Shown here piece by piece: positions 19,686-55,142 of a DNA stretch of 64,000 nt. Each line of letters opens with the position of its first letter. Position 1 is the first letter of the stretch. Under the pieces are notes generated by a model. That model ran no database searches, had not been told where the DNA came from, and saw only the letters and a list, made by a program, of their open reading frames with translations. This DNA is from Phoronis australis (lineage: Eukaryota > Animalia > Phoronida), in NCBI GenBank assembly GCA_002633005.1, contig NMRA01000204.1, positions 576,272 through 640,271 of the forward strand. Direction: 5' to 3'. The translations under genes and the position numbers were made by a program.

Positions 19686-19854
19686 ATATACATATATATA
19701 CCTTTACTGATGAATATTATAGTTGTATAAATATATATTGTTACTGTTAAATTATGTAGTAATTATAAGTAGTCGTCTGAATGTATCAGACTTGCTGATA
19801 AGATTTCTTTTAACCTTAAACATCCTGGGTGATCTACCTTGCTGTACTTTTCAG

Positions 19855-28110: not shown

Positions 28111-31100
28111 GACATCAGTCAACTATTAATTGGAAATGATAATTAATTAAATGTGAAAATGTTGTCAAAGTCTCAGAGATATTGTTATGATCTGGGCATT
28201 TGTGTCAAAATCTGTCTGAGTAATGAAAATCAGCCAGACAAAATTCGCCATCGGTGGAGGGTTTATACATGATTCCATTACTGGTTGTCCAAATTTTCCA
28301 AAAAATTCAGTCCGAACATGCCTTGTTCCCACCAGCATTAGCGGTGTGTAGGTACCCCATTGGCAATGGTGCCCTGCGGTGGTGTATACATTTGTCTAAT
28401 AGGACTGAAGTGAACAGTAAAAGTGAAAATAAAAGTGTCATTGACATAACACAAACCTTTTATTTATTCAGTGACTTTAAAATGAAGTTCAACTCGCAAT
28501 TCAAACTCATTTTTCATATCAAATAAAGACATATTAAAAAATACAGCCTGTATAAATTTTGTTGAATGGCTTGCCTATGGCTGATTGGGGTTTTGCGACT
28601 CATTTCAAAATCTTGGCCTATATCCCTGTTACTGATCTGGAATGTGGCATTGATGTCTCTAATATCTCACCATTTTCAGAAAAAAAAAATCATCTTTGGC
28701 GATAAAAGTGATGGTCCAGAGGCTTTAATTGATTTTCAGTGTTCAATTTTGGATTCCCAAATCAGACTACAGATTAATGACATTTCAACAAATTTTTGAA
28801 CATTTTTAAAATTCAGTTTACATTCAGTTATAACAGGACATAGGTAAATATTTTGAAAATTGTGTCTTTACCTCATTCCAGTCCAAATTCATGAATGTTT
28901 TTATGTTTTCATCATTTAATTTTTTTAGAGTTTTCTTTGGAAGTGCATTTTTAACGTAAAAGTTTGGCCACAATTTACTGTGGCATCAAGTGTTTTCTGA
29001 TGCATTTGGTAAAAAGCTATCTCCTTATTCACACCAAGAGTTGTGGGTGACTCCAAACCTAAAGGTAGAGCAATTTTTTGCTTCTGGTGCCTCGACTATT
29101 TGTGTTGAAGTTTCTAAAATAGGGTGTTTTGATTGCTACATTTTCAAACCACCTGCTGTGAGTGCAGATGCTCTTCCCATAAACTTGCTCGAATTATTGA
29201 ACATAACATACTGCATTTGAGAACCACTTTTCTCCACTGATTAACGGGCATCAGACTGGTTCTCAAAATGTGGGCATGTTGACCTCAGTGATATACATGT
29301 TATATAAAGTACTTACAAGTTGTCTGACTTCCTTGATGTATATATGTTTACAAGCATGTCGTGAATCTAAACTTGTTTCAAAGGAGCATTCCACCATAAA
29401 TTCATGTATTTTGCAGGGATAATTTTAGGACTGCATCCTGCGTCATTGGCACAAAAATAACTTCCATTTATACTGTCATTGCTTAACTCGGCCAACGAGC
29501 TCATTAAGATTGAAAGAGAAAAAGGAAAAATAATGGGTTGAATGGCCATTACACAGTATTAAAAAATAACAAAATAACATGGCCCTTGTGGGTCAATTCA
29601 CCTATACCCACGTTTTTCTAAAATGATACCTGATTTTGCATCAGTTTATGTGTATCGGTACTAGTTCCATTCAATAACAGCACATTCAGTTCTTTTAACA
29701 TTACATTTTATGTTGAGTACTTGTCTGTCATTTGCTGCTGTTGTGGTTATTAAACAGAGTGATGCCATGTCTGCCGTGACTGTTTCTAAACACTTTATGT
29801 GAGTGGGGTTGGGTATGAATTTGTGTTACGTGATGACTTGATTGAAATGCCCTGAAAATGAGATAAAGTCAATTCTGCTTGCTCTGTTAAAGAAGTAAAG
29901 ATTTGGGTTCTGTGACCAGTTGAAAACAGGGCGGATCACTTCTACTGGGCTCTGTTGAGCTGGAAATCTTGTCAGGTCAAAACTGATTTTCGGATCGGAA
30001 TTGGACTTGTAGATTTGCCCTTATGAAAAGCACTGCCATGTTTGTCCCTGTGCAATACCTTAAACCTTGCCTGCTAATTGGATACATGTGGGAGGAAAGT
30101 GCATTTACACATCCATCATAAAATCACCATGTTATTTTCACCACACAACTGAAAGTGGGTTAGCTCAACAACCTTAACTGGAATTCTCTAGAGTCACCAT
30201 CTGCTTACAGTAACCTGGGGTAACTAACAGTAGGTACTGTCAACATATGAAGCTGTGAGTCAGTGTTTACCCTTTTGTAGGTCACATGGGTTGTGTTTAC
30301 TTTTAAGTAGGTCATTGCTTTGAGCTGATGCAAGTGTTGTGACTAACTCTGACCTTGAATGCTGATGTGTACTAAAAGTGAATTCCCGAGTTAACGGTAT
30401 AAATGACGAGAAATATGAATGATTTTAAGCAATGTTTTACTCAACGTCATGCGGAGAAGATTTATACCTACCTGTACTAATGTCACATATTACGACACAA
30501 GGTAGGGCACGGGAAACAGTCAAGTTTCAACGGGGTTAGGAAAAGTCAAATTACAAGTCTCAACTCTATCTGTCAATATCCATTCAATGCTTGTAGACAT
30601 AGAGTTTTTTCCAGTGTGTAAACACTTGCTATTGTTGAGTTCTGGTAATTGCCTTGCTTGATGGTTTATATGTTTGTTTTGTTTATGTATTCAGCAGTCA
30701 AGTCTACTTCACAGCTGGGGTTTCATAGTTTTATTCAACCAAATGACCAACTAGTTCATTCAGCTTCTCCTGTTTTATGCCTGTGATGTATGATATAATC
30801 TCACCAATTTTGGACAAAAATGTTTCCAAAATTATTAATTTTTTTCAGAAAATATTGTATCCATAGTAATCGTGGCAGCAATGCAGAACTTGAAACATTT
30901 ACAAACATAGTTAATTTGGTGCCGCCTGTCTTAGCATGAAATCTCATGAAACGTGATAAAGGCTTTCATTTTTCCCTTGCATTGTATCCTTTTTATCTGT
31001 CCGTGTTCCCCATATAGTTTGCTTAGAGGGTATATTTATACTGAATACGGTAATCATGAGAATACTAAATACCGGTACTTCTCCTGTGGGAACACAAAAT

Positions 31101-33252: not shown

Positions 33253-33283
33253 GCATCTAAAGTGTTTTGTTTTAAATTTCAGC

Positions 33284-36200
33284 ATGGCTGAACAGATGCA
33301 ACCCCAAGCTGGAGCAGGTATGTTAAGTGCAGCCTTTAGTTGATTATGTAGGGTCCCACAAACATGGTGGCTAAGCCTTTTGTCCATGTTGTCTTGTCCA
33401 AATTGAGGAATGGCAGAGGCTTCACAGTCGAAGGCGTGGCATATCATAAAACATGCATATTGTTGCATTTACATTCCATTATTGTGATGTTGATCATTAG
33501 TAATTTCCAGGCCTTGAGCTTTGAATAGAGTCTACCTCACCTGTTTCACCCACAGCACCAGTAGTAGATTATGAAAGTGGGTCAGGGTAGCCCAGCATTG
33601 TAGGTATGCATTGTCCTGACAGGTTCTTCCAGCCATTGATCGAGAAATGACAGTTCAACTGCTATTTATATAAGGTGCACTCAGTGTTAGATTCCATATT
33701 TTTGAAAAATTCTGAAATTAAGTTCATTAGGATTTATTTTTGAATACGATAATGTCATTATGTTAAATGACAGTCACTTTGTACCGACATCTCTCCTTCA
33801 CCATGTTACTCCATTGTGTCCACTTGCGAGTGGCGGCCTCAGGCTTTGAATCTGCGATCCTTTGGTTCCCATGTTTGCAAACTTGAAAATTCATGCTGAA
33901 GCTATTGCAACAAGAGCTTATGTTTGTTTTAGGCGGTAGCCAATGGATGGCACCACCTCCAATGCCTGCCAACTGTCCGCCAGGCCTGGAGTACCTCACT
34001 ATGATTGACCAGCTTCTAGTCCACCAACAGGTGGAGCTGCTGGAAGGTATGACCTTGTCTGAATTGTATGTCTTGATATTCATGGAACTTTCAAGCAATC
34101 CATTTAATGATCACTACGTTACCTGCATTGCTGTCCTGAAAATTAGATAATTCCAACAGTATTGTGTCTTAAACATTCATGCTGGGTTGGGGTGCAGTGA
34201 ATAACCAGTCACTTATGTGTGACTGTGTCATGGAACCCTTGTGTTTTGGTCTTTATCAAAACGGATCTTCAGTAAATGGGAAATGGTTCTGCAATGCAAG
34301 AAAGAAAATGCTTTATAACATCAAGTCAACTTTGACAAGTTATTTTTCGAAAGGATTCTCCATCGTATTCAGCAACACCTTTTATTATATTGTAGATTAA
34401 ACGCAGTTATGCCAGTTAGCTCTAGAATTGATTTACGCAACTGGAAGCAGACATAAAGTGTATACCTATCAGGGATTGTCACAACCTTGTTATCTGTTTC
34501 AGCTTTTACTGGATTTGAGACCAACAACAAATATGAGATTAAGAACAGTATGGGTCAGAGGGTGTACTTTGCTGCAGAAGGTAATGTGTACCTTATATAT
34601 TTACTGTTACCCTCTGTGTATTTAACATGGGTATTGCTGTAACATTCCTAATGTTTTCTTATGTATCAGCTTGTGTAGTGATGTTACACGCTGTTTTTTC
34701 TGATGGACCTGCGAAGCGATCTTGCATGTACAATTTCCTGTGCACTAGATTACAAAGTGTCCGATCGTGCAGTTATAAGCCCATCAACTCTGTTGAAGGC
34801 TTGTGCCCATACGGTTAGTTTTGACAAGTGTATATGACTGCAGTTGTATTATGCTCTGTTTTTCCTGTTGTAAGTTTGATTAACACACCCAGCTTTCAAA
34901 AATTAGTTAAATTAGTTTCCACTAGTGATGTTCGCTGTTCTACTTGTCACTGATTACGGGGTGACGTTACACTTTTCTCTCATGCTCTTGTCTGGCACTG
35001 TATGACTACAGCACATTGATGGTTTCAATTGAACTCTGGTGTGTGCATATGAACTTAAGTACAACTGAAATTGATGATTCCTTTAAACCTCACTTTTGTA
35101 CCATTGTCACCTGTGAAACTCTTGTTATGGCATTGGCCAATCTTCAGTTCTGATGACATGAAATAGTACGATAATAAAAACTATATGCAAACTATGTCTT
35201 TTTCTGTGCACATAAACTTGTGATGTGATTGACAGTTATATCTCTGAGAATTTCACGGTATGGCAGATGTTACTGTCAAGGATGGTCTAGTGATCATTCT
35301 TGGATCTCTATCATAATGTAATCTGGCTAATTCCTGTACAACATTGACTGACGTGATGTTTCAATCCATCCACAGACAAGCACAACAGAAAGTTGACATA
35401 GCACTGCAGAAAAATGGACTTTAATTTTGTCACATTCCTCCACAAAATGACAATTAAACATGCCTTGCTGTGTTTTTAACTTGGTTTGCCCTGCACAAGT
35501 GTTGCAAAATAACAAGTTGGAGAGTTTTGAACATTTGCAAGAACATATTTTGAAATTGCGAAAAATGTCAATTTTAACTCATTTTGCGCCAGGTTGAAGC
35601 ATGTTTACCCTACTTTTACCTCTATTCACCCACGCTGTATTGTGAAACTGATGGAGGTGACGGCCATTTAAGGACAACTAACATATAGTTTACACATTTC
35701 TCTTGAAGACACGGGCTGCTGCACCCGCAACTGTTGTGGTCCCGTCCGACCATTTGACATAAAGATCATGGACAACCAGGGTCGCGAGGTTATTCACCTG
35801 TCTCGGGGATTACGGTGCTCATCTTGTTGGTTTCCCTGTTGTTTGCAGGTACAAAACGTGACCCTCCAGTGTATTATTTACTTGATATCTACCAAGAGAG
35901 TCACCCTCTTGTGTATCATGGCTTGCTGGCTTGGCTTGGTATTTTCTTCTCCTGCACGTGCTCTAATTGTAAAGTTCTCTTTATCCACATGCTTTAGTCA
36001 CTCTCCCTGTGTAGTCATGTATTACTGGTTTGGCTTGGCATGACACATTCTTCTCTTGCGTATGTTCCAATTGTTGTGTTTCTCCGCATGTTCTAATCAG
36101 CCATCGCTTGCCCAGTTTCTTCCTTTAGGTAGATTAAACACTGTTTAGGTTTTATGACTACGGTAGTAAGCTGGGATGTCTGAATGGAGCTCATGAATGT

Positions 36201-39200
36201 GTTATTTTTGGCTCAACAAGCTACTTCATTCTTATTAAATCTTAGTTAGAAATTGACTCATTTTGAGCTTGTCCCCAAATTCCCAGTTTAGACGGGGAGT
36301 CCATCCTGATATCTGTTCCTCTAGGGCCTGTTTTACTGAAACATGTTTAACGTTTTTGGTCTGCAATGTGACGGACATTGTAGTGGCAGTTCATAAGTTG
36401 CATTTTTTCTGAGATTTAAGACAGGCTTAAAGAAGACTAACTTCAGAATATGAGGAGCTTTCTATACAAAAATGCCATAAGACACCTCACTTTTGATTAT
36501 ACTAAGTACTGGTGGACAAAACTTGTGGATTTTTGTCGTGTGTTTGTGTATTTTTGATACGTGGTCATGTATTTTCACATAGTTTGAAAACTCAGAATAT
36601 TTATGGTATGAACAATTTAACTTGTGTCTGTTACTGGTAATTTTTGCCACATGGCCCTCTTGTCAATTGTTAAGTATTGTTCTTCAGTTGGTTGTCTAAT
36701 ACTGGCTAATTAGCAAGTGTTGACCTGTTGCCGACTTATGACCCCATGTCTGGTCTGCTGTATGAACATGACGTGCATTATTTCCATGGTTTAATATGTT
36801 GGATATGCTTTCTTCCTGATTTGCTTGACCAGCATTTAATATTCATCCATCTATCATGTTACCTTGGCTGTATTTTTAATGTGCTGGTTGCATGCTGACT
36901 ATAACATAATGGTTAGTCATTATTCAACGTCCTGACTAGCTATATGTGCATTTGTGAGGCAGAGGAGTGGTTATGATCCTTGGATTAGTTCCCTAACAGA
37001 TATATTTGTGCAGTCAAGAAAAGTGTGGTGGTTTTGGGTTTTAAATGGCCTGTTTTAGTAAAAACTCGTGTGTGTATTAATGTTCTGCTACTAGTATTCT
37101 AAAAGTCATCTGGGTGTCATTCTATTTCATCGGTTAACCCTGAAAGTGTTTTTGACAAGACATGCTGTTCTTTTCTTTGCGCAGTTCTTAACACTTTTCA
37201 AAGGTAATGTAGAATTTCTCCCTGTTTCGTAATTGTTTGTTTCTGTTTTACTAATACTGACTCAATACATTATAATGTCATTTGTGGACGTATGCATTGT
37301 TCTGTGTTACCATTTCCACTGTCTTTTCTTAACTGGCTGTACAAAAACTTGTGCATATTGATTATAACAAAGCTTAACGCAATAGATATTCTCTTTTCCT
37401 CAACCAACAACCTGGCTGTGCTTAGAAGCATTTATCTCAAATGCATTAACTTGGGAAAATTCTGCTTCAAGAATCCTGTGAGAGCACCTTCCTTCGGCCC
37501 TCGATACCTTGGAATTGAGGCCAAACATTGGCCACATTCCCCTATGAATATATTTAAAAGTTACTCTCATCAGACCCAAAAATTCGCCTCCAACGATTAG
37601 AAAATAAAATGACTCAAAATTAGAATCAAGTCTGTAAAATATTAGTCTCAGTTTATTGAGGCATTTGCCAATGAGGGGTGGCAACAAGGGGGATGAATTT
37701 TCCCTCCATCAAAAAATTTCCCTCAGAATGTGCTGGCACCTTTCCCATCAGGAGCACGAGTGTCCCGTCTTCCTAAAGAGTGGGTGGGGATCCTGAGTGG
37801 TATAATTAGTGCTACCAATAATTTAAAGCTTTACTTATGAAATCATAACAGTTCGCTTAATTGTGAGAATTTTACGTAAGTATCTTCTACAGACAAAAAG
37901 TTTGTTGGTAAAACTTTTTCTTTGGACCGATCTGCAAGTAGTGAACTTTGATTAGGAACTAAATCAATTGTGGCCTCTTTTTGAATACTGTTGCCACCTC
38001 AATATTTGCTTATAAGTTAAGAACTTGTGACAACAAGTTAATTCTTATTATAAAAAGTTGTTGATTTTGCTCAAGTTGTTTGCTTAGTTGAAGTGCTTGT
38101 TGCAGTTGTGTTAGCATAAGACACCCTGTGGCTGACTCTTGCTCCCTCTGTTGTAGAAAGTGACAGTGGAAGCACCACCTGGGAATGTGGTAGGCTACAT
38201 CCAGCAAGCCTGGTCCATCTGTAAACCCAAATTCTACATACAGAATGCCCATGGTGACACGGTCCTCACCATCCATGGACCCTGCTTCACATGCAACATG
38301 TGTGGTGATGTGGAGTTTGATGTATGTACTTTTTCAATGTTAGGAATGTCATTTACAGTACATGCTTGCAATATGCTAAAATTATTGAGTGAACTCAAAG
38401 GTGGTGCTTATAGTTGCTGAATTAGTGGACGTGTACTCAAGATGGATGTATAACTTGTATTGTTCAACATCAGAACTTGTGCTTCTCATGGTTTACGAGA
38501 TTTCCTGTTGTTAATTTTCGTGCTTGTACATTTCACCTGTAAGTGGTGGGCATTCAGGGTTTTATTCTTATAAACAGTCGGGTCTTACTGGACAAAACTA
38601 GAGTTTTCATGCATTGGTGTTTCTTTGTTGTCAATCTGGAAAAAAATACTACATATGCCACAGTGTTCTCATCAGGATTAAAGTTGAATGCTGTTAGTCT
38701 CGAAGTGGAGATCTCCCCGTGGTCCGTCTTTTTGGTTAAACACTTTTTTGTCAATAATTTAATCAGTGTTAGATACTAATTTTCACAAAAATTGTAATTG
38801 CACTGGGCACTAGATGGAAGAATATAACAGTGATGACTCAACATTTTAGAGTTTTAGATCATTTAAAAGCACTGTATACACGATTGATATGACCACCAAT
38901 TAAAGACTAAGCATGATGACTCAAAATTAGAGTGTGGTGGTAAAATTTGAGCACGGGGGTTGAAATTTGATGGCCCACAATACTGAAGAAGCCTACCTAG
39001 AATGCCACTGTTAAAATCGATTTTTAACACAGACTTTGAAAATTCAAACATAATGTCCACACCAACTACACCACATGCTGTATTGAGGTTGGTCAAGTGT
39101 AACAATGAAACTGAAGGAAATGGAACTGGTCTTGTAATTCCTCATCTCTGTTCATGTTTATTACTGTAGCTTTAATCCAGAGAGGTCACAGGATCTGTCC

Positions 39201-40293
39201 TATGTACTGAGAACTGTTACACATAACTCACAACACTCTTGTTGAATGTAAACATGATATCTCTTATCATTCAACCACCTTCCTGGTGATATGTACTGAA
39301 TTTCTTATTGTGTTCTACACTGACTGCCCACAACTTTTATTTCTTTCATTATGGCCATTTGTTAAAAATTGCCTTACCTAGAAATACCAGAAATCAATAA
39401 AATAAATCAGATACTAAAATGTAGATTTAGTTTATTTTTGTTTGATGTTGGGGGCTTTTGGCCTTTGATTACAATGTGGCATGACTCTTTAATCTAGATA
39501 ATGTCACATGTATTTGTAGCATGCAATTAAATAAATCAGTTTTGACAGTCATCTAGGGAGTTACTGGTTGAAACTGTTTTCTGCAGTTGAAAATTTGCTG
39601 TAGTTTTAAATTCTTGAATTTTATGCTTCGTCTTCACTATTGTTTTTCTGTTTTAGGTTATGTCCTCTGATGACGGCACTCAGATTGGCAGAATTTCCAA
39701 GCAGTGGACAGGCCTAGTCAAAGAAATGTTCACTGATGCTGACAACTTTGGGGTAGCATTTCCAATGGACTTGGATGTTAATGCTAAGGCTACAATGCTT
39801 GGGGCAGTGTTCCTTATTGTAAGTCTTACAAGATGTCGAATGTCTTCAGCTGAATACAATGGAATTTGAAAAATACATAGTTGTCATTCCATTAATATTG
39901 TGTATTAATTGTGTGTGACAAACATTTAAAGTCTTGTCTGCACGCCACCTGTTGGCCACATCAGACCAGACTTAGTGATCCATATTTCCACGCCAGCTCA
40001 AGATATACATATGAAATGTAAATGGCACGTTGACTAGGAAAATGCATGATATGAATTATTATAACTAAGTGCATTGTTACACTTATTGTCTGAGTTAATT
40101 ATTATGTAATAACCCTTTTAAAGTTATAGGACATAACAGCACCTAATCTGATTATTTCGTCCAGTTTATGTTGAACTAGCGAGAATATGAATTGTTTTTT
40201 TGTGAATTGAAATTTTTTTTCTGTCAATTTTAGGACTTCATGTTCTTTGAGAAGGAAGACAACAAAGAAGAACACAAGGTGGGCATGATGTAG
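33284..40293 (+). CDS. PLSCR: Phospholipid scramblase (PLSCR family): shared exons A-C plus 3' cassette 1 (D1-G1)
   Basis: Exons A 33284-33317, B 33933-34046 ([34 protein letters not shown]), C 34503-34580 ([25 protein letters not shown]), D1 35709-35848, E1 38157-38321, F1 39657-39818 ([31 protein letters not shown]), G1 40234-40293 (DFMFFE...stop). All phases fit; GT-AG introns; AATAAA at 40470 and 41428. Confidence 0.95.
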
Positions 40294-40668
40294 AGTTAGA
40301 AGTGGCTCATACATCTAGGCCAGGCTTCGTGTAGTGTCAGCTGTTTTACCGAGAATTTGTTGGGGGAAAGGAATTGCATGTTGAAAATCTTCTGCAGGAA
40401 AATTGTGCCATGTAATATTGGTTTTGATTTGTCAGTTGATCAAAGTTACTGTTAACTCGATTTGTATCTAATAAACTAACCCCTTGACTCTTGTAAAACT
40501 GGTCTCAACTTGTCCCTTACTTGGTTGAGGAGTGGTTTTTGTCTTGTTATCATGCTGAAGCCTTCTTATTGAACCTGTTCTCAATAACCAAGTGTTGCTT
40601 CTTTCCAAACCCTGTAATCTCTTAGTCTAAGCAAGGAACAAATGACCAGTTTTATTATGGTAAAAAAC

Positions 40669-40922
40669 GATAGAAGTTACTTACTATAAGACTATAAGTT
40701 AGGTGTGCATAACGGCCCTTGTTTACATGACTGATCTTCCAGTCGTTGTTGAACCGGAAGTAATACTTTGTCGTAAATGGGAGGAAGTTGTAGTTCCTGG
40801 TCAAGGTGTTACTTCCGGTTCAACGACGGTGGGAAGATCAGTCAGGTGAACAAGGGTCTGAGCTGCAGGCTCGAAACGTTATGCGTACCTTACTTATAGT
40901 CTTCTAGTAAGTAATTTCTATC
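40669..40922. repeat. Inverted repeat (about 110-bp arms), possibly Penelope-derived
   Basis: GATAGAAGTTACTTACTATAAGACTATAAG...TTGAACCGGAAGTAA pairs with TTACTTCCGGTTCAAC...CTTATAGTCTTCTAGTAAGTAATTTCTATC. The right arm has an extra GGGTCTG-AGCTG-CAGGCTC-GAAAC segment. Confidence 0.85.
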
Positions 40923-42982
40923 ATTTCTTTTCCATCATCACAGAAAACAATGATGAATTATGGACACTTTTAACCATTTTTTTTGTGTCAAGTTTTTGGC
41001 AGGACTGTTTATAGCTCCTTTAATTGATAAGTGCTGTTACAGGTATCTTGTGTAGCATATGCCTATTAAAGTTGTATATTTTGATTCACTCTGTAATTTG
41101 ATTTTAAGAATTTGCAATTTGCCTACATTTTATATATTGAAGTTCTAGTATTTGTGCAAATGTTTGATATGTCTTGTCATTCTTCATTAGTGTTGTTCAT
41201 GTTATAGGGTGTAGCATATCATTTTAAGCCAAAAAGATAATTGGTTCTAGTCTCTTTTGATTCAAGGTGGTGTGGTATTTTTAGATGCTCACTTTTTCAA
41301 ACAAACGAATTCAGGTGGAATGAGCCCAAATGATGCATGATTTGTTTGTTTTTACTCCTCACTTGGCAAATCATAGCGTTTCAAACCTTGCTTACTCTAA
41401 TGTGTGTGCCTTTGTGCAGCTTTTTTGAATAAAACATCACAAAGCCTTTTAGTTGAAATTGATACCAGAGGTTTTTTAGTTGGGGTAAAGACCAAGACCA
41501 ACTTTGCATTTCTTGGCCTTATATTGTATTGGATTGTATATACTGTATAAAATTGTGTTTGAGAAAGATGACACGTTGCCTTGCGACATTGCTTTATTTA
41601 TTCCTGTGCATGCATGTTCATTCACTGTATTTGATCTGTTCTTTGTCCAGTGCCTTTCAACAAAGTAGTTTAGGACTTCAGTTCTATTTCAACTTACAGT
41701 ACTCTTTTTTAAATTTCACGTAAAATTTTATTTCTCCAGTGTGTCCCAGTCTTTGATATTTTAACAACTACCTTTTTAGGTGTCCACATAAGTGACTTTA
41801 AGGTTGAGTTGAAAACATAGGTCATGTAGGTTTAAGTCTCATTACTAGCTAAAAATCCACTTTGGTTCCCAAATGGTTGCTAGGTCAATATGAAGAATAA
41901 GATTTGAATTGTCTGTAATAACACCTACTGGTCTTTGACATTCTTCAGCACCTGGAAGTAAAATAATGCAAAATCAACTATGTTATTTTTACTCCTTAAA
42001 GATGATTTCGTTGTTTTATAGACGGAAGTACTAATATGTCACTGGAGCTGAGATATTTACCACACTTTGGTCAATCTTTGAACTCGACCTTATTCTTTTG
42101 GTTGAAATTTGATTGGGCATAGCTAGGACTATGATGTACCTCTTAGCATTCACTTTTCAGTTCTCTACTGTTAGAAGATAATTTGCTGACAATTTCTGTG
42201 TGTTGATGGGGGTCTCATCAACCTTTTACTGGATATCCCTGTTATTCAGCTTTCTTGAAATTCAAAACTTTGATATTGCACTCTTTGTTAAAAAAAGAAA
42301 TCGGTATCTCAATATTGAGCATTTTCTTATTCTAGTTTTAATGTCTTTCAGTTTCATAAATTAGCTTTAAATGGTTTATTGTGATGCAGCCCCTTTGTAA
42401 TAGTTTTTATCACGGAAAACTTATACCTACATGGTCCTCCTGAGTCTAAGTGAAATGAAGGTTCTCACTGGCATTTTATAATAAGTCGAGTATCTGACAA
42501 AACTTCAAATTTATGGAATCGTTGGATTTGTAACCAGTTTTAGAGGTGTCCGTTAAATTAATATATTTTTAAAAGAAAACGTGATTGTACCTATGTACTC
42601 CTGAAATACAGTTGTCTTTTGAATTGTGGTTTAATGATTTTTAATAGCAGTTCAATTTTGTGCGCAAATTTGACTGTTGCTGCTGGGAGTGAAAAGAAGC
42701 ATTGTCCTTCACGTCACCACCAGTTTAGTTTGTGTGTCATTGTTCCTTGGTTGTTGGCCATTCTTGTTACCATCCCCTGATTACCGTAAATCATATTTAT
42801 ACTGTCTTCTGTCGTTTGTTTCCCAGTGCTGGTCGGACCAATTCTGCTCTGTCAATTAATTTTCGTTCCTTATCGGGGTGCACCTCGGCTATCGACCTCC
42901 CTTCGCCACCCCAAGCTACTGCCGCTTGACTTGCAACAGATTGTATCAGAATGCAGCCATTGGCATGTGTGTATTGTTTTAG

Positions 42983-45208
42983 ATACGGATTGTTTGACTC
43001 GGATGTGCTGTGGCCGCTTTCGTATTTTTGATATGAAAATCTTCGACAACTACGGCAGAGAAGTAATTCATCTGAAACGCCCGTTCAGGAGTGACTCTTG
43101 CTTTTGTCCGTGTTTCCTACAGGTAACTGGTTACTGCAGTTGTTTCGATGCGCGTCACCACACTTCGCAGTACGTAAAAATGCCATTTGGTTCACACTCT
43201 TCTTGCGTTCTCTTCACTGACGTACATTTTACAAATGGTCATGAAATTACCTGAAACAGCGTTGGTGGTTCACACCATGTTAAAACGGAGAGTAAAAGCA
43301 TCTGCTTGTCCACAGTGTGACAGTATTCACATGATACAGCTAAATGCATGTCTAGTCTATGGAATAAAGGAAGTATAGCACACATCCTATTTGAAAACTC
43401 CCTTTTCCTAGAAAAAAATCAACTGCAAAATGTGTGTATCTGTTCATTCCTCAAAATTTAACTTGGGACCTCTCGCGCTCGTGATTACTACGTTAGTACT
43501 AGGCTTCCTCTTCCGTAATTTTGTAGGTCTTCTTAGTTAACGAAATGTCACACAACGCAGCTAACCCATTCACTTTATGTGTTAAGTACTATTCGCTGTG
43601 ATATTTTCTTGTGTTTTTGTAGAATTTTTATGTCTCAATTTTGTCAGGCTGTTTTGTTCACGAATAAACCGTTATGGAGTAAGTCAATCCGAAATCTGAA
43701 TTTCCATGAAACAATTTTCAGGAAATATGGTATACTGTTCACGAGTAAAGAATTGCGTTACTGGACAACGGCGGACGTTGTTCATGAGAACCTCCGTGCG
43801 CATCGTTAGGAAGGATGATTGGCAGCCCTGCCATTGGGCAATTCTTTTTCTGCTTGTGATTGGCGAAAAATCTAGCAATTGTAATTTAACTATTTTTGGC
43901 CGGGCTGAAATCTTCGTTCGATGTGCATCTCTGTCTACGTCGACTGTTTTCAGGAGGTGGAAGTGTGTGCACCGCCTGGTGTTGTCGTAGGTTATGTAAA
44001 ACAAGGCTGGTCCATCATAAAGCCAAAATACTACATTCAGAATGCCGTTAGAGAGACTATGTTGGTTGTCAACGGGCCGTGCTGTACGTGTGCGGTGTGT
44101 GGCGATGTGGAGTTCGAAGTATGTATTATTGTTAGGGGTTGTAAACTTGAGTAAACCATCGGTAGAGTTCAAATTTTGTTGAAAAGATCATGCTTCCACG
44201 AAACCTCACATGACTGAAACATGCCAGCTTCAAAAAAGTGAGAGGCGACATCAGCAGAAAAAGAACACCACTTAGAACTTCATAATAAAAACAAAAAGTG
44301 TTTATTTTACACCCATTTGGGTTGTCGAGAAGAGCTTCAACAATCTGTTCCTTATGGGTGCGCCCATTCGTCCTATCATAGGCAGTAATGATTTGTTTAT
44401 GTATAGAAACACCATGGCGATGTGGCTAAAGGTGGTGCCAAACGCCGGGCTGTGCGGCTAACAACGCTCTGTCTTCAGTGCGCAACCATGGTTATTGCTG
44501 TGTTATTTCACTGTTTGGCTAGGTGCATTCCCAAGATGGGTCTCAACTGGTTGGCAAAATCTGCAAGAAAAGGGGCGGTCTTATGAAGGAGTTATTCACC
44601 GATGCAGACATGTTCTCTGTTGAGTTCCCGTTAAATCTAGACGTGAATGTCAAGGCAATCTTACTTGGGGCCGTCTTCTTAATTGTAAGTAATGAAAATA
44701 CAAGCAGACTAGCTTTCAGTGCAGCTTCCTTGTTTGATGTGCAGGTATATAGTAGGAGGGTTCCCTCATTGCTCTGCCACAGTTATAGTCCTATTGCCGC
44801 AATGAAGAGTGCCACCCTTGGTTTATACACAACAATAGTCAGACCGTGCGGCCTGTGGTCACCAAACCGGATCCGATGATTTAATGCATTAATTGCAGAG
44901 ACACGCCGGGGAAATACTTTTTCCGTATTATGTCAGTAATATTCCACGCATTCACAATTTACCAAGTATTATTGTCAAAACTTTCAACGCCTAACTTCGT
45001 TAGTGGATCTAGGATGTCGTTGGAGGACACATTTCGAAGTACAATTCCAAAAAACGGCATTCCGCGGTCTTTTTGATCGTGACCGCTAAATGAAGCTAGA
45101 GTTCTACACTCTTCATCTTTGTCAATACTTGAGAATTGGTGTTTCCGTTCACAGGACTTCATGTACTTCGAAGAAACTCCGCAAGATGATAATGGAGGTA
45201 TTCTCTAA
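42983..45208 (+). CDS. PLSCR: Phospholipid scramblase 3' cassette 2 (exons D2-G2); no 5' exons of its own found
   Basis: D2 42983-43122 (140 nt, phase-1 start), E2 43954-44118 (165), F2 44523-44684 (162), G2 45155-45208 (DFMYFEETPQDDNGGIL*). D-F lengths equal cassette 1, frames open, splice sites canonical, AATAAA at 45320. Confidence 0.9.
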
Positions 45209-46107
45209 CTGCTTAGCGAGCCCTGTGGACCGTACTGTCGTCCAATGTCGCCCAGGTGCAGCATGAGTCTACTGTTTTCATTTTGTTCTCATTTCCTCTT
45301 TGGTTTGGCATTAAGTGCAAATAAATACCATTTGAAAGTGATACAAATTGTCTTACCGATTTATTTTGTTAAGAAATGTATGCTATTCTTTTCGCTAAAT
45401 TCTTGGGTCCACCTGTACGGAAAAAACGACAGTTAAACCGTCTAACCGAAGGATTTCTATTATGAAGCAGGATTTTCAACTTGTCGAAACTATTTTTAAT
45501 TGGTATCATACGAATGAACCTCATTTGGTCACGGCTGAAAATTCGGCGAAGTTAAGAATCGAGTAAGTCATGAATTTTTGCTTTTAATCCGAACGTGGTT
45601 CAAGGTGTAAATTAAATTTTGACCCCCGTGGAAAAATGACCCAGAATCACTTTTCCAATGGTTCATTTTCCAATAGAATGGTGACAATTTCTAACGTTGA
45701 AAATTGACCCGTTCAGTTAGATAACGACCGCGGCTCCTCACAAGTGAAAAAGTTCCCTCGTTAAAATTTGACCTCCGATTTTGACGTTTGTTGGAGGATG
45801 CTCAGTTACGGCATGAGTCTCACTCTCACACTCGGCGAAACATTGGCGAGTAACAGATGCGGGGGGTGGGCAGGGAACAACTTCCTCTATGAACACTAAA
45901 TAAACCAAACAACAATACCGAGTGAATATCCCTGACCACGGCATAGAGCAAATGGGTTGCATCTCCGGGGACCACTGGCGATTTCACAAGTAAACGACGA
46001 CCACTGACAGCTGCTCGGCGATCGGGACAGTGAACTCAGCAACCAGGGTTCATGGTGTAGCCTATAGCCGGGGGGATTACTCACGGTCGCGTGTCCACAA
46101 GCACTAG

Positions 46108-46153
<46 letters not shown>

Positions 46154-49100
46154 NCTCCCCCCCCCCTGGCTCCCAGGAGGTAGGCCTACTCCAGTATTAA
46201 AGTGACGGGGTGCTCCGCCCGAAAATCAAGTACCCGTGCACCCTTCCGTAGATATTTGCCAGAAGATATCCTTCCGTAGAGAATTTCCAGATAAAGTCAC
46301 CCTTCCGTAGAAAAATCCCACAAAAAGTCTCTTTTTTGCGATCCTGCCGGTGACACTGGTAAACGATACGGGAAATTGATGCACGCCGAGAAACCTGGGG
46401 CGAAAAACTGCATCCCAGCTGCGGATTGCATTCAGGCTGAACTCGTGGAAAGCGGAAATATACTCAGTCTGGTGAGTGAAAGTGATTATCTCTGAAGCTA
46501 CCCTCAGGCAGGTATCACTTAATTTTCCTCGGGAAATTTTTTTACAGGCACCGGCGTTTCTGATTGGCTAGTCGTATTCTTAACAGGCAGCGCATTAAGC
46601 AAACCGTTGACAAACTGGCATGACTGATGGATTGAAGTGTAAATATGGTCTCTTTTTGTACAGACAAATCGGTGCTTCAGTAACTAAGGAACGTGAATCC
46701 TAGAAATTGTTGCGCATTTTCGGAGTACGTCTTTCTTCTGTCGATGACTTTGGTTTACGATACTGTCCTGTATTCTTACCGTATGATTCATTCTGCCAGA
46801 TATGTTTTTATTGTACATGTATGTGCTTCAAGCACGCGGCTATGAAACATTATACTGCAGAAACGAAATAGTTGCTGCGACGCCACTTGCATGATAAGGC
46901 TAAAAATCGTTCACAGTCCGCCATTTTTTCATGGTGTTGTAAAGCTAACCAATGACTGCTGAGGTTACATCAACCAATGCTAAAGCGCGTGCCACTGGGT
47001 GATACCTGCGTGCTGGCTAGGCACGTAGGGAACCAGCGAGGGTGGCTGCCATACTGTCGTAACCGTAAACTGAAAGGGTTTCCCAGATTTCAACCAATGT
47101 GAATGACTGAATGTTATGACGTCATTTTCATTACCAATGAGAAGCCATGATAAACAGCTAGCATCACAGTGCTACCTTAATTCGTAGCTCTGTGAAAGAG
47201 TGTACTCGATCTGAAGCGGGACTAAATCATATCGATCCTTCAGTACAGATTCGTGATGAAAATGGCTGTTCTTTTTGTATTGATTTTTTTGCCAAAATTT
47301 TGAACCCTTTCGTGCAGTCTTAAGACGAAAACGTCTCCTTTCTTCCCGTAAAAGTGATCCTTCCGGGCTGCACATTCTGTTTATAACTACATATGAAAGT
47401 AGCCCCCCGGGCCTGACCCTCTTCTCATTGTTTCGGATGCCCCGGGGGCGTTGCCCCCCTTCTCTGCATGACACTACTGTCTACGGCCTCCTTGATTAGG
47501 GGGCTTAGCTATATCTTGACCCCGGTGGAATCCCGGCGCAATGTCGACGAGAATGACGAACCGTCTTTGTTTTAGAGTAAAAAACCAATGCACTTTTTAA
47601 ATTTAATCCGACTAAGAAACAAGTTGATATTAATCCGGAGCACAATTTTCAAAGGACAGGTCAAAATAGCCCTAAAATGCGCGGTAGGAAGGGTAAACCC
47701 TTCATCGAAAAAATCTTGCGTAGATTCGCCTCTGTACACGCCCGTTTGGCATTGAAATGCAGTAATACGAGACATCGAGCCTGGCGTACTCTACTGTGGC
47801 ACTGCATGGTCCTTGCGGGACGACCGATCACGGCTATAGGTTGGCTGGAGTAGCAAAAATTTCACCGGCTATAAGACGCCAGCGAAAACCGTTTTTTTCC
47901 AAACAAACGAGATGTCTACGAATTGGTCGTTTTCCCCAACACATAATTTGCTTCCCCACCACCCGAATCACTGTTAAGCGAAAGTTATTTCAAAACATCG
48001 CGGAGACAAAACAAAAGCTTGTAACTCCTGCGCACGGTTGTCCTTTGAAGTAAGGGGCCTCTATAAAAGTTCTACCTACAACGCCAATAGTTTTAGGATG
48101 ACGCAGTCCTCCAACAAAACTCCAGCAATTAAAAGTCGTGACTCTGGCTTATTGCGACAGTTTTAACTGTTAAAACATTACTGCAAGCAAAAATGCTAGC
48201 GAAAATGGCTAGAGTTTTAGCCAGTATGTGAACCGTGTACATGTTACCCACAGCATGGATGGCAGCATAGGTCATCAGAGATGTAGTATACCGCCGACCT
48301 GCAGATGTGTGGTCGCCCTATCTTCGGCATCAGACATCTTTTGGTGCACAGCAGAATTGTATGCCGAAACATTTTATTTGTTTAAGTGAACCTACATCAC
48401 AAAAAGCAGCGTGTGCGTCTTTTAAGGTGTACATTTTAAAAACTGTTTCCTGGTCCTTACGTGTGAAATGGGAACAATCACGTAATTTCCCCAACAGAGT
48501 TGAACTGACGGGTTATCTTCTTTTCATTTATTAAATTGTGCTTTCTGAGGTATTTGTGCTTTTCTTTTACGAGCACCAGCGGGTTATGAGGGCTTGAATT
48601 TATTTTTGTTAAAAGGATACTAAACCCTGTTTTGATCGGTTGATTTTCGCCAATTCTCGTTCTGTCACCTGCTAATGCTTCATTGGCGTCAATGTTCCAA
48701 GTTAAAGGCACATAGCCTAATCCCTATGTCACAAATTGAACATTATGGTCCGCCTCAGGTGTGGGTGGTCTTTTCCCACAGTTGCCGTGCAATTCGCTAA
48801 AAGCGTATAAAGCTGGTCACGCTTACCCGTTTAGCAGACTTTGATGGAGATTTAAAAATTTCCTCCAAGTTCTTGAGCGTTGTCTAGGGTTATCTTGTTT
48901 CAGAGAACTGGATGGGAAAATCGTTTTCAGTATCTCAATAGGTCAAAACCGGATTTTGTATCCTTTTAAATTACAAACAATGTTTTTGCTCTATATCATG
49001 TCTATTCACTGAACGGTGTACGTTGTACGAACATATATTGAATCATAGGCAAGTCCAAACTTGAAAGGCAATGCGTAACCCATAATTTGTCCTAAATGCG

Positions 49101-50152
49101 TTCTTTGGATTGTATCGCCCGAGTACAAAGCTGTATTTGGCACCTTAGTAAGAGGTCAGTGCGCACCAGCCTAGAAATCTACTACCAACGCTCTTGTCTT
49201 TCCGCTCGTAGCACAGATAATTATTATATATATAGCACAACCGACACGTATCGCCGGGTTTATGAACGAATAAAATCGGCACACGTTTCGGGCAAAGATC
49301 TTCACAGTGTTATCTCGGATAAATGGGCTACTGTGCAAGCCAACACAAAGAAAAATTATATATGATTACTTTTGTCATCGATGCACGGCCCTTCATCGGG
49401 GCCCCCTTCATCAGAAGACAAATGTTGCGAAAGGCCTTCTTATGGCAACCTGTTCAAAACTACAAAAGGGAGGGACATAAGAAAGTAGAACAGAAGGCCG
49501 GAGAGGAAATGGTTAGAGAGGTAGTGGTTCCTGTGGCCTTGGTACCTGTTCCACGAAACTGACTTAAATTCATCTTTTACTTAAGTCTAAGATTTGTATC
49601 AACTTCCAAACTTTGAAATTTCCACATCCGGTACGATAGTCCAAAATCAAGACTTAATTAAGTAAAAAACTGAAGTCAAACTTAAGATCTCTTTGTTGAA
49701 ACGGTCGTGAGAAAAATTTAAGATTTGCCATAGCCAAGTGAGTGTTGAAAAACAAAATCGATGAGATTTATTTAGATTTGGTGTTATCAAGATTCCTCAT
49801 CAGCGCACAGACCGTGAGGTAATTGTCACTGCTGTAAAATGTCAAGCCCGTGTCTTTATACCAAATGAAGGACTTCTCCTGCCTTAAGCAAATAATTTTT
49901 ACCTGACTGTCATTTATCAGGTTTTACATTGTCTCATTTTATCAGGTTTCAACACATGGGAAGGGGAATTTTTTATACATTTTGAGGATTAATTTCGTCA
50001 CTGGGATTGCAATGTTTAGATCGTTAAAGGGATTGAAGTGTACCTTTAAAAGTTTGAATTCAAGCGGTCTTTCTCAAACAGTGAACCACAAACCATTGCT
50101 AAAATCGTGACTGGTATTTCAACATTTCTATCTTAAATCCGTGTTCTTTCTA

Positions 50153-51122
50153 CAGTGGCGGATCTAGGATATCGCACGGGGGGGGGCCCAACATTTTGTC
50201 CGGCTGTAAGCATTTGCGCAAACCACGATTGTAGATGGGCATAGCACCGAATGGGGGGAGGTCGGGAGGGGGGTTTGCCACCCTCCCGCCCAGGACATTT
50301 TTCTGTTTTTTCCTCTAAAAATCAAACATTTTCCTTGATTCCTGAAGTATTATCCAAGAAAAAAGGCAACGTGTCAAACAGAAAAACTGCAAGCTACCAG
50401 AGACTCGAACTCAAAACCTGGTGAATAGAGCGAGCACGCTTTACCACTACACCACCACGACTTAACTACTGATAGTATACCTAAGAGACCTACTTGTTTA
50501 TGGTCCACAGCGTTTGCGCGCGAAACCTATTTCTTTTTGTAATGCTTATTACACGTTTCATATTTTGTGCAATCGGTTCTTAACAAATTTGTTGTATTTA
50601 AAATAGTCTTCAAATGCCCAAAAGACCAAATCAATTTTTCGTGTTGGCAATAATGACGGGATTGCTTTGGAAATCGTCTTAAGTTAAGGTTTGACAAAGA
50701 CAGACTTATGAGTTTCTGAGTGATTCACTAAGGCTTCGATTTAAATTCACATCTTACCAGCAGCTTCTGTTTTTTCATCGTCACCCACGTTCCATTTTCT
50801 TTAAAAAATGAAGTAAATTTTCTTCATTGCACAGTGGAGCAGACGACGGAAACGGAGCCGTAGTGAGCAGCGCCACTGCCGGTCGCCTGGGATATCGCGG
50901 GAGAGCCTATACTTAGCCATAGTTCCGAATTTGACACTTGAAATTGGATCTGAGCCCCCCCCACAAACACTAAAACTGCACACATTTAAATGTTGTTTCA
51001 TCCGTATAATTTTAATCACCGGGGTTAATTAATAAACTCAACATTTCCCTACGCTCTTGCTGTTTTATTTTTTGCGGCAGCCAAGGGGGGGCCCTGGCCC
51101 CCCTCCCCTAAATCCGCCTATG
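50153..51122 (+). mobile_element. Non-autonomous DNA transposon, imperfect TIR, 5-bp TSD, internal tRNA-like segment
   Basis: CAGTGGCGGATCTAGG ... CCTAAATCCGCCTATG with TTCTA at 50148-50152 and 51123-51127. Minus-strand GGTGTAGTGGTAAAGCG...GAGTTCGAGTC at about 50400-50458. Confidence 0.88.
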
Positions 51123-52385
51123 TTCTAGAATAAGAACTCATAGACCAGACTATCAAGACTATAACATTGGACTGAACATATAGGCTGTATATACACAAAA
51201 CGTACCGAGAGTGGCGTACATGAAGTAATATCCCACGAGAAATTATTCCGCGTATCGACCGAGATCGAATTGTATTTATCCCATACGCTTCGAATTCCTA
51301 AGTTTCTTTTGCTTTTTCCGCAATTTTTTTAAAAACTTCACTCAGACTGTTCACGTTTTCTCTAGTAAAAGAAACAGTTTTAAATGTGACAATTTATTAC
51401 TTGTAAAGTGATAACAAAGATGAAAACAAGGGTAACTTTTCATTGAAATTGTAACATATTCTGAAAATAGTTAAATAACAATATTGAATATTGTAGTTAC
51501 CGAGGCATCGGCGCCTGAGTTGCAGGCGATAAGATGTTTAGCAAATGAAAACTAAGACAGAACTGTCATATAATTAACAGTCCTGTTCCAGATGTTACGA
51601 TTGATACCTGACTGTATGTTGAGCGTTATTTACACTGCTACAATTGCATTACTTTAAACTATTTTCCGAAAGTTTGGTAATCGAACCGGCTAATGACGTC
51701 GAGTCGACATTGACCTACCTTTTGACTGAATTTTCCATGTCAGAGGTCACTTTTGTAGTGCGGGAGGTGAATACGGAAAACTTTATCACATGGCCGTATT
51801 TCCCTCGACAGATTCAACGCGTATGGGATAAACTTGAATTCAGTTCGTTCCTTCAATTTTTCAAAAATTGTGGGCTAAACCAAAACTGTTACAGTTTTTA
51901 GTAGTAACGCGAGGATCATTGTAGAAAACATGGGTGTGGGTGAACTGACCCACACAGCCTAAAGTCCATGTGCCAACTGAATTTGGAGGACCTGTGAGCC
52001 ATGTTAGTTTTTGTCCTCTTTCGCCTCTAATTTTAATTGGCCCAGGCCGTTGTCCCGAATTAAGTAATCGCAGTACGCCAATGAAATTGTTTTTGCGCCA
52101 ATGATGCGGTGACACTAAATATTATCTCTGGTAGTAAACGGACAATCAACGTTGCTGGAGCCGCCGAGTTGTTGAATACAACGTCTAAAATTTAAATTAA
52201 ACCAAAAATTCCCCAAACCGTGAGCATTCACTCAACAGCAGTCGCGAAAATAGTGTCTGCGGAGGACAAAGCTAAAAGGTCCGCTGGCACAATATCGCAT
52301 TTCCTCGTTTTTGCAATAGCTGACCACGATGATGGAGTATACAAAACATATAAAGATATCAAGTGTTTTTTTTTAATGGCACCAG

Positions 52386-55142
52386 AAACCAGCGTCTGTT
52401 CACGGATACTGTGCCGAGGTCACAGAGCATTTGAAATGACGTTCGTCGACTGGCAGATGAAGCCAATCTTGCACCTGTCTAGACCTCTGCGCCTTGAGTG
52501 CTGCCTTCCGTGTTGTCTACAGGTAAGATAATGTTCTGGGATAATATCATATGTCTTAGTTTTAAGCAGTTGAATTCTGCATCATTCTGAATAATGTACA
52601 TTGCTACAATATCTGGTTTAACACTACTGTAATTCTAATGTATCGAGACACTTTGTTCCAAGTGATGTTTAGAGAACAATTGCGTCTTCACAAAAATTAC
52701 ACCCAATGAACCGAGTGAATTTTCAATTAAATGGGCGCCTGATCCTGCGCACTCACGAGTAAAATCTCTTCCGAATTGACTTCCGATGTTTTCACTAATT
52801 GTATAATGCGCGCATTTAGGCCCATGTGCCTATGTATATTGCAATCGATGTGTTTTAAAAATAAAAAGAGTATTACGAAACTGTTACCCACCTGAACATG
52901 TGTGCCCAAGCGTCCCTAGTTGATGGGTGCGGGCGTTACGTCTTGTCTACCACATATGCGCAGCGTTCGAAATACATGCTGGCCTGATGTCCCCGGGGCC
53001 AGTGGATTTGCCACCGGGCCAGTAACTTTTAAAAGATAAAACATATGGCACCTGGGCCGGTAAATTTTTAGACTAACTGGCCCATCGGGTCAGCCCATTG
53101 ATTTACTGAAGTTCGAACACTGCATGTGCGTGTAGTTTTACGTCTACACAATTCGTTTTTTCAAAAACTACTGAGCAATATTTTCGCATGCAGATGCACA
53201 CGGTTCACATGGAGGTGCATGACTCTAAGTACGGACATATGAAGTAAGTGCACAAACTGAGCGATTTCTCACTGTTTCCCCATCCATTCGTAAATTGAAA
53301 ACATCAATTTTTACAGTAGCAACACAACCACCGCTCTCATGCGCCGTTGCTTACTGTACTCACGTTTTTCACGTAAGTTACACAAGCGCCTCCAGTAAAA
53401 GCATGCGCCGTAAACTTAAAAACTGATCAGTTCAAACTTAATGGCTATCCCCACAACATTGCGCAGTTTCAAGAGTTATTTTATGTCGGCCAAGTTAACA
53501 AACCATTATGCACCGTGCATCTGACCTATGGCCAAGCAGAAAATACGTAATGTTGACAGGAGGTGGAAGTGCAAGCTCCACTAGGCTGGGTGGTGGGCTA
53601 CGTTAAACAGGTGTGGACATTGGTGTGTCCTCAGTTCCATATTACAAATGCTAACCGGGACACTCTACTACTAGTGAATGGACCCTGTTGTACATGTGGC
53701 TGTTGCGGAGATGTGGAATTCGAGGTGAGCTTTACAAGCTTTTTTGAGAACTATAATGACATAAGTCTCAATAACCTAGTATAAAAGAACGGCAGCAAGC
53801 CGCCTTCCATCACGAACACCAACTATTGACTCGATCACGAATTAGTTTCAAATTGTTTCTCAATCAAATTGAAGACAATTTCACGGCTTCGAAAGATGTG
53901 ACACTTCGCTATTGCTCGCAATCAGGATCTACAAATTGGCTTAGCGCGTCATATTTTTGCACCAAGCACGATTTCGAAAAATAACGACCTTTCAGTTCTT
54001 TGCCATACCGTCATACACTATTTCTCTTCTGAAAAAGATACAAGTTCAGAACCCGTGGTCCAAATCAAGTTCGCTTCCTAAACGAAAGGCGGATTTACAG
54101 CCGGACATAACTTCTGAAAAGCAATCCATACCAATTACGGGTAGGGACACAGCTGTGTTGATCCAATTCAATTTCTGTTTTCTCCGTTATATAGGTTCTC
54201 ACGACATGCTCCTTATGAAGTGCATACAACTGCTGTTTTTTGTAGATTACTACAAAATCTTACCAAGCTTCTTGTTTGGTTTGAAACTGAAAAGCTTACA
54301 AAACGTTAACTTATTCAACAGACCACATCATTGCTAGGTTTTTAAGAATGACTATGTAAACCACGTGACAACGAGGTTATGTAGGATATTACTGACAGGT
54401 TTGGCATTTTATCAAATATCTACAGAACTGTAGATTTCAAGTCAGTAAAAGCAGGAAGACTTCAGCGCTTAAACTCAAGACAGACTGAGCTGGAATTACA
54501 CCAGTGAGCACGAAAATGTCACAAGAACATGTTGCAATAGCAAGCATTAGCACTTTGCAATAAGAGACTCAATGCTAACCTTCACGATTTCATTTTCACG
54601 AAAGAGGTCGCTCTAGCCGGCTGGTGACTGGTTGCCAAGCGAAGCAATATCTTTTCGAGAAAGTTTTCATGATTTATCGCCTGACAGGTAAGATCTTCAG
54701 ACAACGTAACTGCACTAGGCAAAATTGCCAAGAAACGAGGCGGCTTGGTTAAGGAAGTGTTCACCGACGCAGATTCATTCGCAGTGTCATTTCCCATGGA
54801 CTTGGACGTCAAAGTAAAAGCAACCTTGCTTGGAGCCATTTTTTTAATTGTGAGTAATCCAGAAATGAATATATACAGGGATAACCACTTACAGTAGGCT
54901 TCCCAACAACTCTTTTTGTCTGGTATAACATAACTTAAACATAACTTCACCTTGGCCTTGGGACCAGTCTAGCAGTGCAACAAGGACGTCACAGAAACAA
55001 AAATATCAGTGGTTAAGTTTTCCTGTCCACAATACACATGATTTTGCTAAAACTCCCTAAAAAGTCATACACCAATCTTGTAAAACTTATTCTAATACTG
55101 TAAATTTCTATTTTATAGGATTTCATGTACTTTGAGAGATAG
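52386..55142 (+). CDS. PLSCR: Phospholipid scramblase 3' cassette 3 (exons D3-G3); no 5' exons of its own found
   Basis: D3 52386-52522 (137 nt, phase-1 start), E3 53560-53724 (165), F3 54688-54849 (162; GKIAKKRGGLVKEVFTDADSFAVSFPMDLDV), G3 55119-55142 (DFMYFER*). Frames open, splice sites canonical, AATAAA at 55305. Confidence 0.9.
52961..53122. mobile_element. hAT-like MITE with 8-bp TSD
   Basis: TIR CAGCGTTCGAA / TTCGAACACTG; flanks CATATGCG and CATGTGCG (one mismatch). Confidence 0.75.

Follow-up and report, generated by a model that had tools for sequence, protein, structure and literature searches.

In Drosophila, pairing between docking and selector sequences controls the choice among 3′ cassettes in PGRP-LC, CG42235 and Pip (PMC6191721). 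In human ATE1, competing pairings hinder a 3′ splice site, and one pairing extends over 30 kilobases (kb) (PMC7797038). This article concerns a phospholipid scramblase gene of the phoronid Phoronis australis, found in a 64,000-nucleotide (nt) stretch of contig NMRA01000204.1 (positions 576,272 to 640,271 of the forward strand), termed the window, whose own coordinates are used throughout. The gene has three shared 5′ exons (A, B and C) followed by three tandem cassettes of four exons each (D, E, F and G, numbered by cassette), and its first two endings replace one another between RNA samples. A preliminary description of this DNA proposed that two distal sites, one upstream of D2 and one upstream of D3, pair with the same short stretch over the branch point before D1. 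In the form given below, with the D2-side site moved to 42731–42775 and the D3-side site derived from a repeat, such predicted pairing is a testable candidate with about even odds. A literature search that covered few subscription journals returned nothing relevant on scramblase cassettes or on lophotrochozoan docking/selector pairing.

A scramblase gene with tandem 3′ cassettes

By its profile matches, the locus is a phospholipid scramblase (Pfam PF03803) gene on the plus strand. A profile of the F exon gave 464 matches, and all 120 of those listed carry PF03803; a profile derived from relatives recovers the gene's exons, and translated exons match proteins that bear this domain. The features of the gene, with the 3′ untranslated region (UTR) of cassette 1, are as follows.

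33283–33317, plus strand: shared exon A, with an ATG at 33284; loose read ends before exon B match it
33933–34046, plus strand: shared exon B, joined to exon C in reads
34503–34580, plus strand: shared exon C, the common cassette donor, with joints to D1 and D2; sole C-like exon in the window
35709–40293, plus strand: cassette 1 (D1 35709–35848, E1 38157–38321, F1 39657–39818, G1 40234–40293 with the stop), giving a 250-amino-acid isoform; from joints and translation
40294–42602, plus strand: long 3′ UTR of cassette 1, ending at about 42583–42602; from RNA depth, molecule ends and a contig end
42983–45208, plus strand: cassette 2 (D2 42983–43122, E2 43954–44118, F2 44523–44684, G2 45155–45208 with the stop), AATAAA at 45320, giving a 248-amino-acid isoform; from joints
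52386–55142, plus strand: cassette 3 (D3 52386–52522, E3 53560–53724, F3 54688–54849, G3 55119–55142 with the stop), AATAAA at 55305, giving a 237-amino-acid isoform if joined to exon C; D3 depth and D3→E3 reads, with F3 and G3 taken from sequence

Exon A is preceded by an acceptor, and a 5′ UTR exon therefore probably lies further upstream. Exons A, B and C are single, and the D-E-F-G set is present three times in tandem, each time in frame with C and with a separate stop codon in G1, G2 and G3. Separate 3′ ends were read for cassettes 1 and 2, and that of cassette 3 is placed by its AATAAA. The cassette-2 transcript ends at 45310–45340 in RNA reads; near the cassette-1 end, a hexamer check found no AATAAA. 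No further B- or C-like exon was found in the window by the profile of relatives, the intervals between cassettes included.

Splicing was followed in three stranded RNA runs (X6, X7 and X8), of which about 18–19% of reads were used. The B→C joint is represented by 299, 238 and 96 reads in X6, X7 and X8, respectively; exon C is joined to D1 in 22, 11 and 89 reads and to D2 in 253, 187 and 0. Endings 1 and 2 swap almost completely between samples. The C→D1 joint (34580→35709) is also carried by a contig from another study (X5), and every internal joint of cassettes 1 and 2 was seen in reads. No joint between different cassettes is among the 15 joints listed of 89.

The C→D3 joint (34580→52386) is absent both from those 15 joints and from the loose ends listed, as would be expected if cassette 3 formed its own unit, separate or arising by read-through, and exon C were never spliced to it, leaving a single distal ending. 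Such an arrangement is very improbable. RNA depth over D3 is 10–26 in X6 and X7 on the gene strand, depth is zero over 52128–52359 so that D3 reads begin at the acceptor, and 20 X7 reads continue from D3 into E3. The intervals between cassettes are free of B- or C-like exons, and C→D3 is in frame. In addition, B→C reads exceed the sum of C→D1 and C→D2 reads by 24 in X6 and 40 in X7, which is close to the D3 depth, and from this agreement we infer that exon C is joined to D3. Cassette 3 is expressed and spliced and would share the exon C donor, giving a three-ending architecture in which ending 2 is roughly ten-fold above ending 3. The architecture assumed in the preliminary description is thus seen in reads for cassettes 1 and 2 and probable for cassette 3. 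Separate tandem genes were also considered: for cassette 2 this was rejected on the direct C→D2 reads, and for cassette 3 it is unlikely with no B or C exons between the cassettes. At F3 (54686–54693, plus strand), the acceptor AG is immediately followed by GTAAGA, a donor-like sequence resembling a recursive splice site.

The gene qualifies as a newly described 3′-variable tandem-cassette gene, with cassettes 1 and 2 shown by reads, and it represents a solid new case of a 3′-variable region, one whose use of endings depends strongly on the sample. Between versions that are only 57–60% identical, about 70% of the scramblase sequence is exchanged. Four-fold sites differ between cassettes at 29/44, 25/40 and 24/39 positions, close to saturation, and the cassette duplications are therefore probably old.

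The best scores of isoform 1 are against proteins of nemerteans, brachiopods and annelids, and its closest named relatives are those of Lineus, Lingula, Owenia, Capitella and Tubulanus. Annotated isoforms in Lineus (P0010, P0121–P0127) comprise two D, two F and four last-exon variants; those in Lingula (P0014, P0128, P0129) comprise three last-exon variants, and mussel and oyster isoforms vary at the C-terminal tip. Variation of 3′-end exons is common in this gene and has no bearing on pairing. Triplication of a whole cassette was found only at this locus among the relatives compared. Cassettes 2 and 3 share an I-x-K-K-R-G-G-type motif that occurs in 0 of 280 compared proteins; orthologues of these two cassettes were not found, and no database protein is clearly nearer to them than to cassette 1. 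Among 80 of 117 confirmed metagenome loci, none displays non-exonic similarity to the gene, and none of those listed has a second D-E-F set.

Predicted pairing of the D1 branch-point region

The D1 acceptor, AAG, is the only non-YAG acceptor among the 15 listed; at three other loci the corresponding intron has CAG, TAG and CAG as its acceptor. D1 is also the only one of the 15 with a CTAAC motif, which lies at 35678–35682 with its branch A at −28 (35681), and from motif and position this is the likely D1 branch point. The preliminary description had named AAG as the D1 acceptor, which the 34580→35709 joint confirms; the nine strings it quoted are all present where it placed them, and the two duplexes it drew both form in RNAduplex (−29.2 and −28.6 kcal/mol). 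The elements that enter into the pairing argument are listed here, with net energies in kcal/mol.

35706–35708, plus strand: AAG acceptor of D1, used in reads
35652–35696, plus strand: candidate docking region (dock) from pairing predictions, spanning the likely D1 branch point and running into the pyrimidine tract
35613–35661, plus strand: predicted local hairpin holding the 5′ half of the dock, its stability matched or beaten by 26/200 shuffles and so not above shuffles
42702–42731, plus strand: D2 selector of the preliminary description, 25 base pairs (bp) with 35645–35677 including 1 G-U pair, net −11.1, branch point uncovered
42731–42775, plus strand: better D2-side candidate selector adjoining the previous site, 33 bp with 35653–35696, net −16.8, pairs A35681
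43138–43174, plus strand: third dock-complementary stretch, 16 nt past the D2 donor, 33 bp, hybrid −35.8, net −10 to −12.3
51993–52029, plus strand: D3-side candidate selector, 32 bp with 35652–35694, net −17.4, pairs A35681, reciprocal best partner of the dock
51915–52127, plus strand: dispersed repeat of about 200 nt enclosing the D3-side site, recognized by DNA depth excess and a second copy
29440–29627, minus strand: second, more diverged repeat copy upstream of exon A, 85% identical over 41 nt and 70% over 99 nt

Candidate partners were ranked in two ways, by raw RNAduplex energy (45-nt windows, peaks in 35850–52385) and by accessibility, where the cost of opening local structure is added to the duplex energy. 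With opening costs included, the dock taken as 35630–35700 has 51993–52029 (−17.4) and 42731–42775 (−16.8) as its first and second partners over both strands of the 64 kb, and the next-best partner within the gene is at −12.1. The shorter query 35640–35690 likewise gives 52001–52029 (−15.3) and 42730–42775 (−14.7) as top partners in 35850–55400; only 4 of 256 blocks of 500 nt on both window strands reach −14.6, and two of the four are the D3-side and shifted D2-side sites. One docking region is thus predicted to pair with both sites through the same bases, as had been proposed, with the D2 selector better placed 30 nt downstream of the original one. The expectation that the two original sites would rank at the top is not confirmed: the D3-side site is first by accessibility, but second place goes to a D2-side site only in its shifted position.

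Viewed from the other side, when 291 intron windows are compared as docks for both upstream regions, the first two places go to the windows at the D1 branch point, and in cofolding D1 is the best of 12 acceptors and above all 70 other windows of its intron. None of 133 shuffled docks matched both sites (the closest reached −23.2 vs −23.7). The D3-side site is better than shuffles, which reached it in 0/130 trials with whole-region shuffling, 0/130 with shuffling of 50-nt tiles and 0/81 in a further set, and which reached it in 0/133 trials with shuffled docks. An 86-nt dock gave cofold ranks of 1 and 4 among 2099 windows, with 0/116 shuffles reaching either site. This result is down-weighted: the 86-nt dock was picked after looking, without the 5′ arm of the hairpin, and adding the arm cuts the gain to −11 and −13.3. 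At gathering score, Rfam has 0 matches in 33000–56000.

A classical docking/selector arrangement, in which competition between 42702–42726 and 52001–52027 alone decides the ending, can point to the complementarity of the 42702–42731 duplex, which locally lies above shuffles (19/1000), and to TTGTCCT, which is common to both sites. It is nevertheless improbable. The duplex stops at 35677 and leaves CTAAC free, so that the earlier claim that either duplex masks the branch point applies to the D3-side one, which pairs A35681. The net energy is also unremarkable, a level of −11.0 being reached by 14/256 of the 500-nt blocks, and the dock ranks only 5th among partners of 42702–42731 in the gene. 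Moreover, a fixed pairing cannot yield C→D1 to C→D2 read ratios as different as 89:0 and 22:253 in two samples. The adjoining site 42731–42775, which begins about 140 nt beyond the cassette-1 3′ end, is a reciprocal best partner of the dock in the gene. As for the third dock-complementary stretch, 43138–43174, it has a 9-mer in common with 42702–42731 and a 10-mer in common with 52068–52077.

The D3-side site lies inside a dispersed repeat. X1 DNA contig depth is 57–762 over 51925–52127, with a peak at 51983–52011, vs 40 on single-copy flanks; 17 X1 contigs break at 51980 into related upstream sequence, and X4 has a similar pattern. Judging from copies that match at 88% or more, the insertion would be much later than the cassette duplication. 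By eye, a large part of the matching motif is also present in other copies, and it probably arrived with the repeat. The diverged copy at 29440–29627 does not pair with the dock (−2.9 vs −19.9). Since the repeat appears younger than the cassettes, the D3-side site would not be an ancestral selector copied with its cassette; it would be either a chance match or a late recruit. The idea that the dock is itself an inverted remnant of the repeat was rejected, as the alignment is no better than shuffles (176/1000 and 153/1000). The D3-side site is crossed by a single X1 contig, in which 2/807 nt differ from the window and neither of these lies inside the site, too few differences to be informative. 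Within the same repeat, 52045–52078 (plus strand) pairs with 35634–35665 in cofolding and lengthens the D3-side duplex in nested order. The intron before D3 (46504–51832) is packed with repeats and has reads on both strands, and at 51780–51832 DNA depth is about 90,000 vs 40.

That the pairing is a coincidence has to be taken seriously and is given somewhat less than an even chance. In this explanation, protein regulators of the weak D1 acceptor, poly(A) read-through and proximity (D2 before D3) alone set the ending, and a purine-rich branch-point region matches a U/G-rich post-poly(A) stretch and a repeat by chance. It has in its favor an all-or-none switch between samples and the fact that the locus was chosen because a match had been seen, and the following findings weigh against functional pairing generally. 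Raw RNAduplex ranks the D3-side site only 7th and the original D2 site 10th. The margins are small, with chance sites elsewhere at −15.9, −15.2 and −15.1, only 1.5–2 kcal/mol behind. The D2-side site is borderline in shuffles (8/130 whole-region, 13/130 with 50-nt tiles, 3/81, and 7/133 for shuffled docks), and it is U/G-rich and sticky, reaching −19 to −22 in cofolding with numerous unrelated windows. The D3-side site has the repeat origin just described. Local alignment of the two upstream regions gave only 12–16-nt chance-level matches and short words, so the candidate selectors are not alike. Loops of 7 and 16 kb carry an extra closure cost of about 6–7 kcal/mol, and with the local hairpin over the 5′ half of the dock, net stability is therefore modest.

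A control also copied the rank pattern. Of 11 control acceptors with sibling exons, one (F1) likewise has sites before its sibling exons as its two strongest partners; its region 39598–39647 is matched by 44107–44151 before F2 and 54447–54661 before F3 (plus strand), though the sites ranked next follow without a gap. The idea that F1 has a docking system of its own was rejected, because shuffles reached the two partners in 1/81 and 46/81 trials and only the first survives; F1 was kept as a control and shows that partner ranks are fragile. In Drosophila, tandem 3′ clusters without pairing exist, a conserved predicted pairing upstream of LCa was inert when mutated, and pairing is suggested to be perhaps rarer at 3′ variable regions, for which a scanning model is enough (PMC6191721).

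On the other side, the best two partners in 128 kb of sequence are those that sit before the sibling exons; each has the dock as its own best partner, and each covers the likely branch point. The joint chance of this is roughly estimated at 1e-3 to 1e-2 with the choice of dock taken into account, a figure that ignores that the locus was flagged for a match.

A possible course of ending choice

The explanation tentatively preferred, at just short of an even chance, is that a regulated weak D1 acceptor makes the main choice and that this choice would then be locked, secondarily, by predicted pairing of the dock with the sites upstream of endings 2 and 3. As fixed pairing alone is insufficient to produce the opposite read ratios of different samples, and as transcription reaches the partners 7 and 16 kb beyond D1, D1 would first have to be held back by other means. 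Most likely this hold-back would consist of a regulated weak acceptor plus read-through of the cassette-1 3′ end.

The proposed sequence of events begins with what was observed, that exon C is spliced to D1 or D2 in proportions differing strongly between samples and that the AAG acceptor of D1 is accompanied by a branch motif of consensus type. In samples resembling X6 and X7, a cell-type factor or the elongation rate might hold D1 unspliced while transcription passes the cassette-1 end near 42590. Some 140 nt later 42731–42775 would emerge, pair with 35653–35696, hide the branch point and bring exon C near D2. Less often, the dock would wait for 51993–52029, looping out cassettes 1 and 2 and giving the rarer ending 3. 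A lower frequency of D3-side pairing is consistent with the excess of ending 2 over ending 3. The D3-side site, having presumably arrived with its repeat long after the cassette duplication, would be at most a late addition. A more specific version, in which the branch-point dock serves as an off-lock and the third cassette obtained a ready-made selector from the dispersed repeat, with spans of 7 and 16 kb, is considered unlikely.

If the pairing is real, competing long-range pairing would extend to a lophotrochozoan, outside arthropods and vertebrates. It would also represent a dock that acts through hiding of a branch point, and insertion of a repeat already matching the dock would be a route by which selectors originate. 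If it is not, the locus is a warning that a pairing can pass shuffle and reciprocal-best tests and yet sit in a repeat.

Other features of the window were observed in passing. The 3′ UTR of cassette 1 contains a long hairpin at 40662–40929 (plus strand; −161.7 kcal/mol, z −19.4). A-to-G differences in RNA at 40697, 40835, 40840, 40896 and 40898, mostly partial, all fall on A-U pairs of this hairpin and look like adenosine-to-inosine editing. An 857-residue stop-to-stop frame at 19723–22296 (minus strand) has many C2H2-like zinc-finger motifs, a label given by eye. The frame at 60405–60761 (minus strand) resembles the start of what we take to be a RING-box protein.

Comparison with known systems

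As in PGRP-LC, CG42235 and Pip (PMC6191721), the scramblase gene has shared 5′ exons followed by tandem 3′ cassettes, each of several exons and with an end of its own, and the choice of cassette is tissue-biased in the Drosophila genes and sample-specific here. A single dock, selectors before cassettes and preference for the nearer cassette are also common to both, as a prediction in the phoronid. In Drosophila the elements are conserved between species, and compensatory mutations have proven them (PMC6191721), whereas the scramblase pairing is a prediction. The PGRP-LC dock overlaps a 5′ splice site (PMC6191721), but that of the scramblase gene, a candidate, lies over the likely branch point of cassette 1. 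Selectors of PGRP-LC are similar to one another and lie 0.3 and 1.25 kb away (PMC6191721), in contrast to the dissimilar scramblase partners at 7 and 16 kb. Also unlike the Drosophila cases described in that source (PMC6191721), the first scramblase cassette is without a selector, and a repeat contains one of the partners.

ATE1 offers a parallel in the hindrance of a 3′ splice site, and there pairing over tens of kb tunes isoform ratio in a manner dependent on elongation rate (PMC7797038). The ATE1 system involves two internal single exons and five conserved elements (PMC7797038), whereas the scramblase cassettes are terminal and have four exons each. The arrangement of one docking region with several partners before alternative exons is that of Dscam1 exon 6 (PMC11802352). 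In Dscam1, however, the exons are internal, the choice is stochastic and the dock lies past a constant exon (PMC11802352); in the scramblase gene the exons are terminal and the choice differs by sample. A repeat-derived arm for an exon-removing loop is found in the Alu pairs of TBXT (PMC11802352). Those arms are two copies of the same family that form long stems (PMC11802352), whereas the scramblase dock, aligned with its repeat, resembles it no more than the shuffles cited above, and the repeat would have supplied one arm of the predicted duplex.

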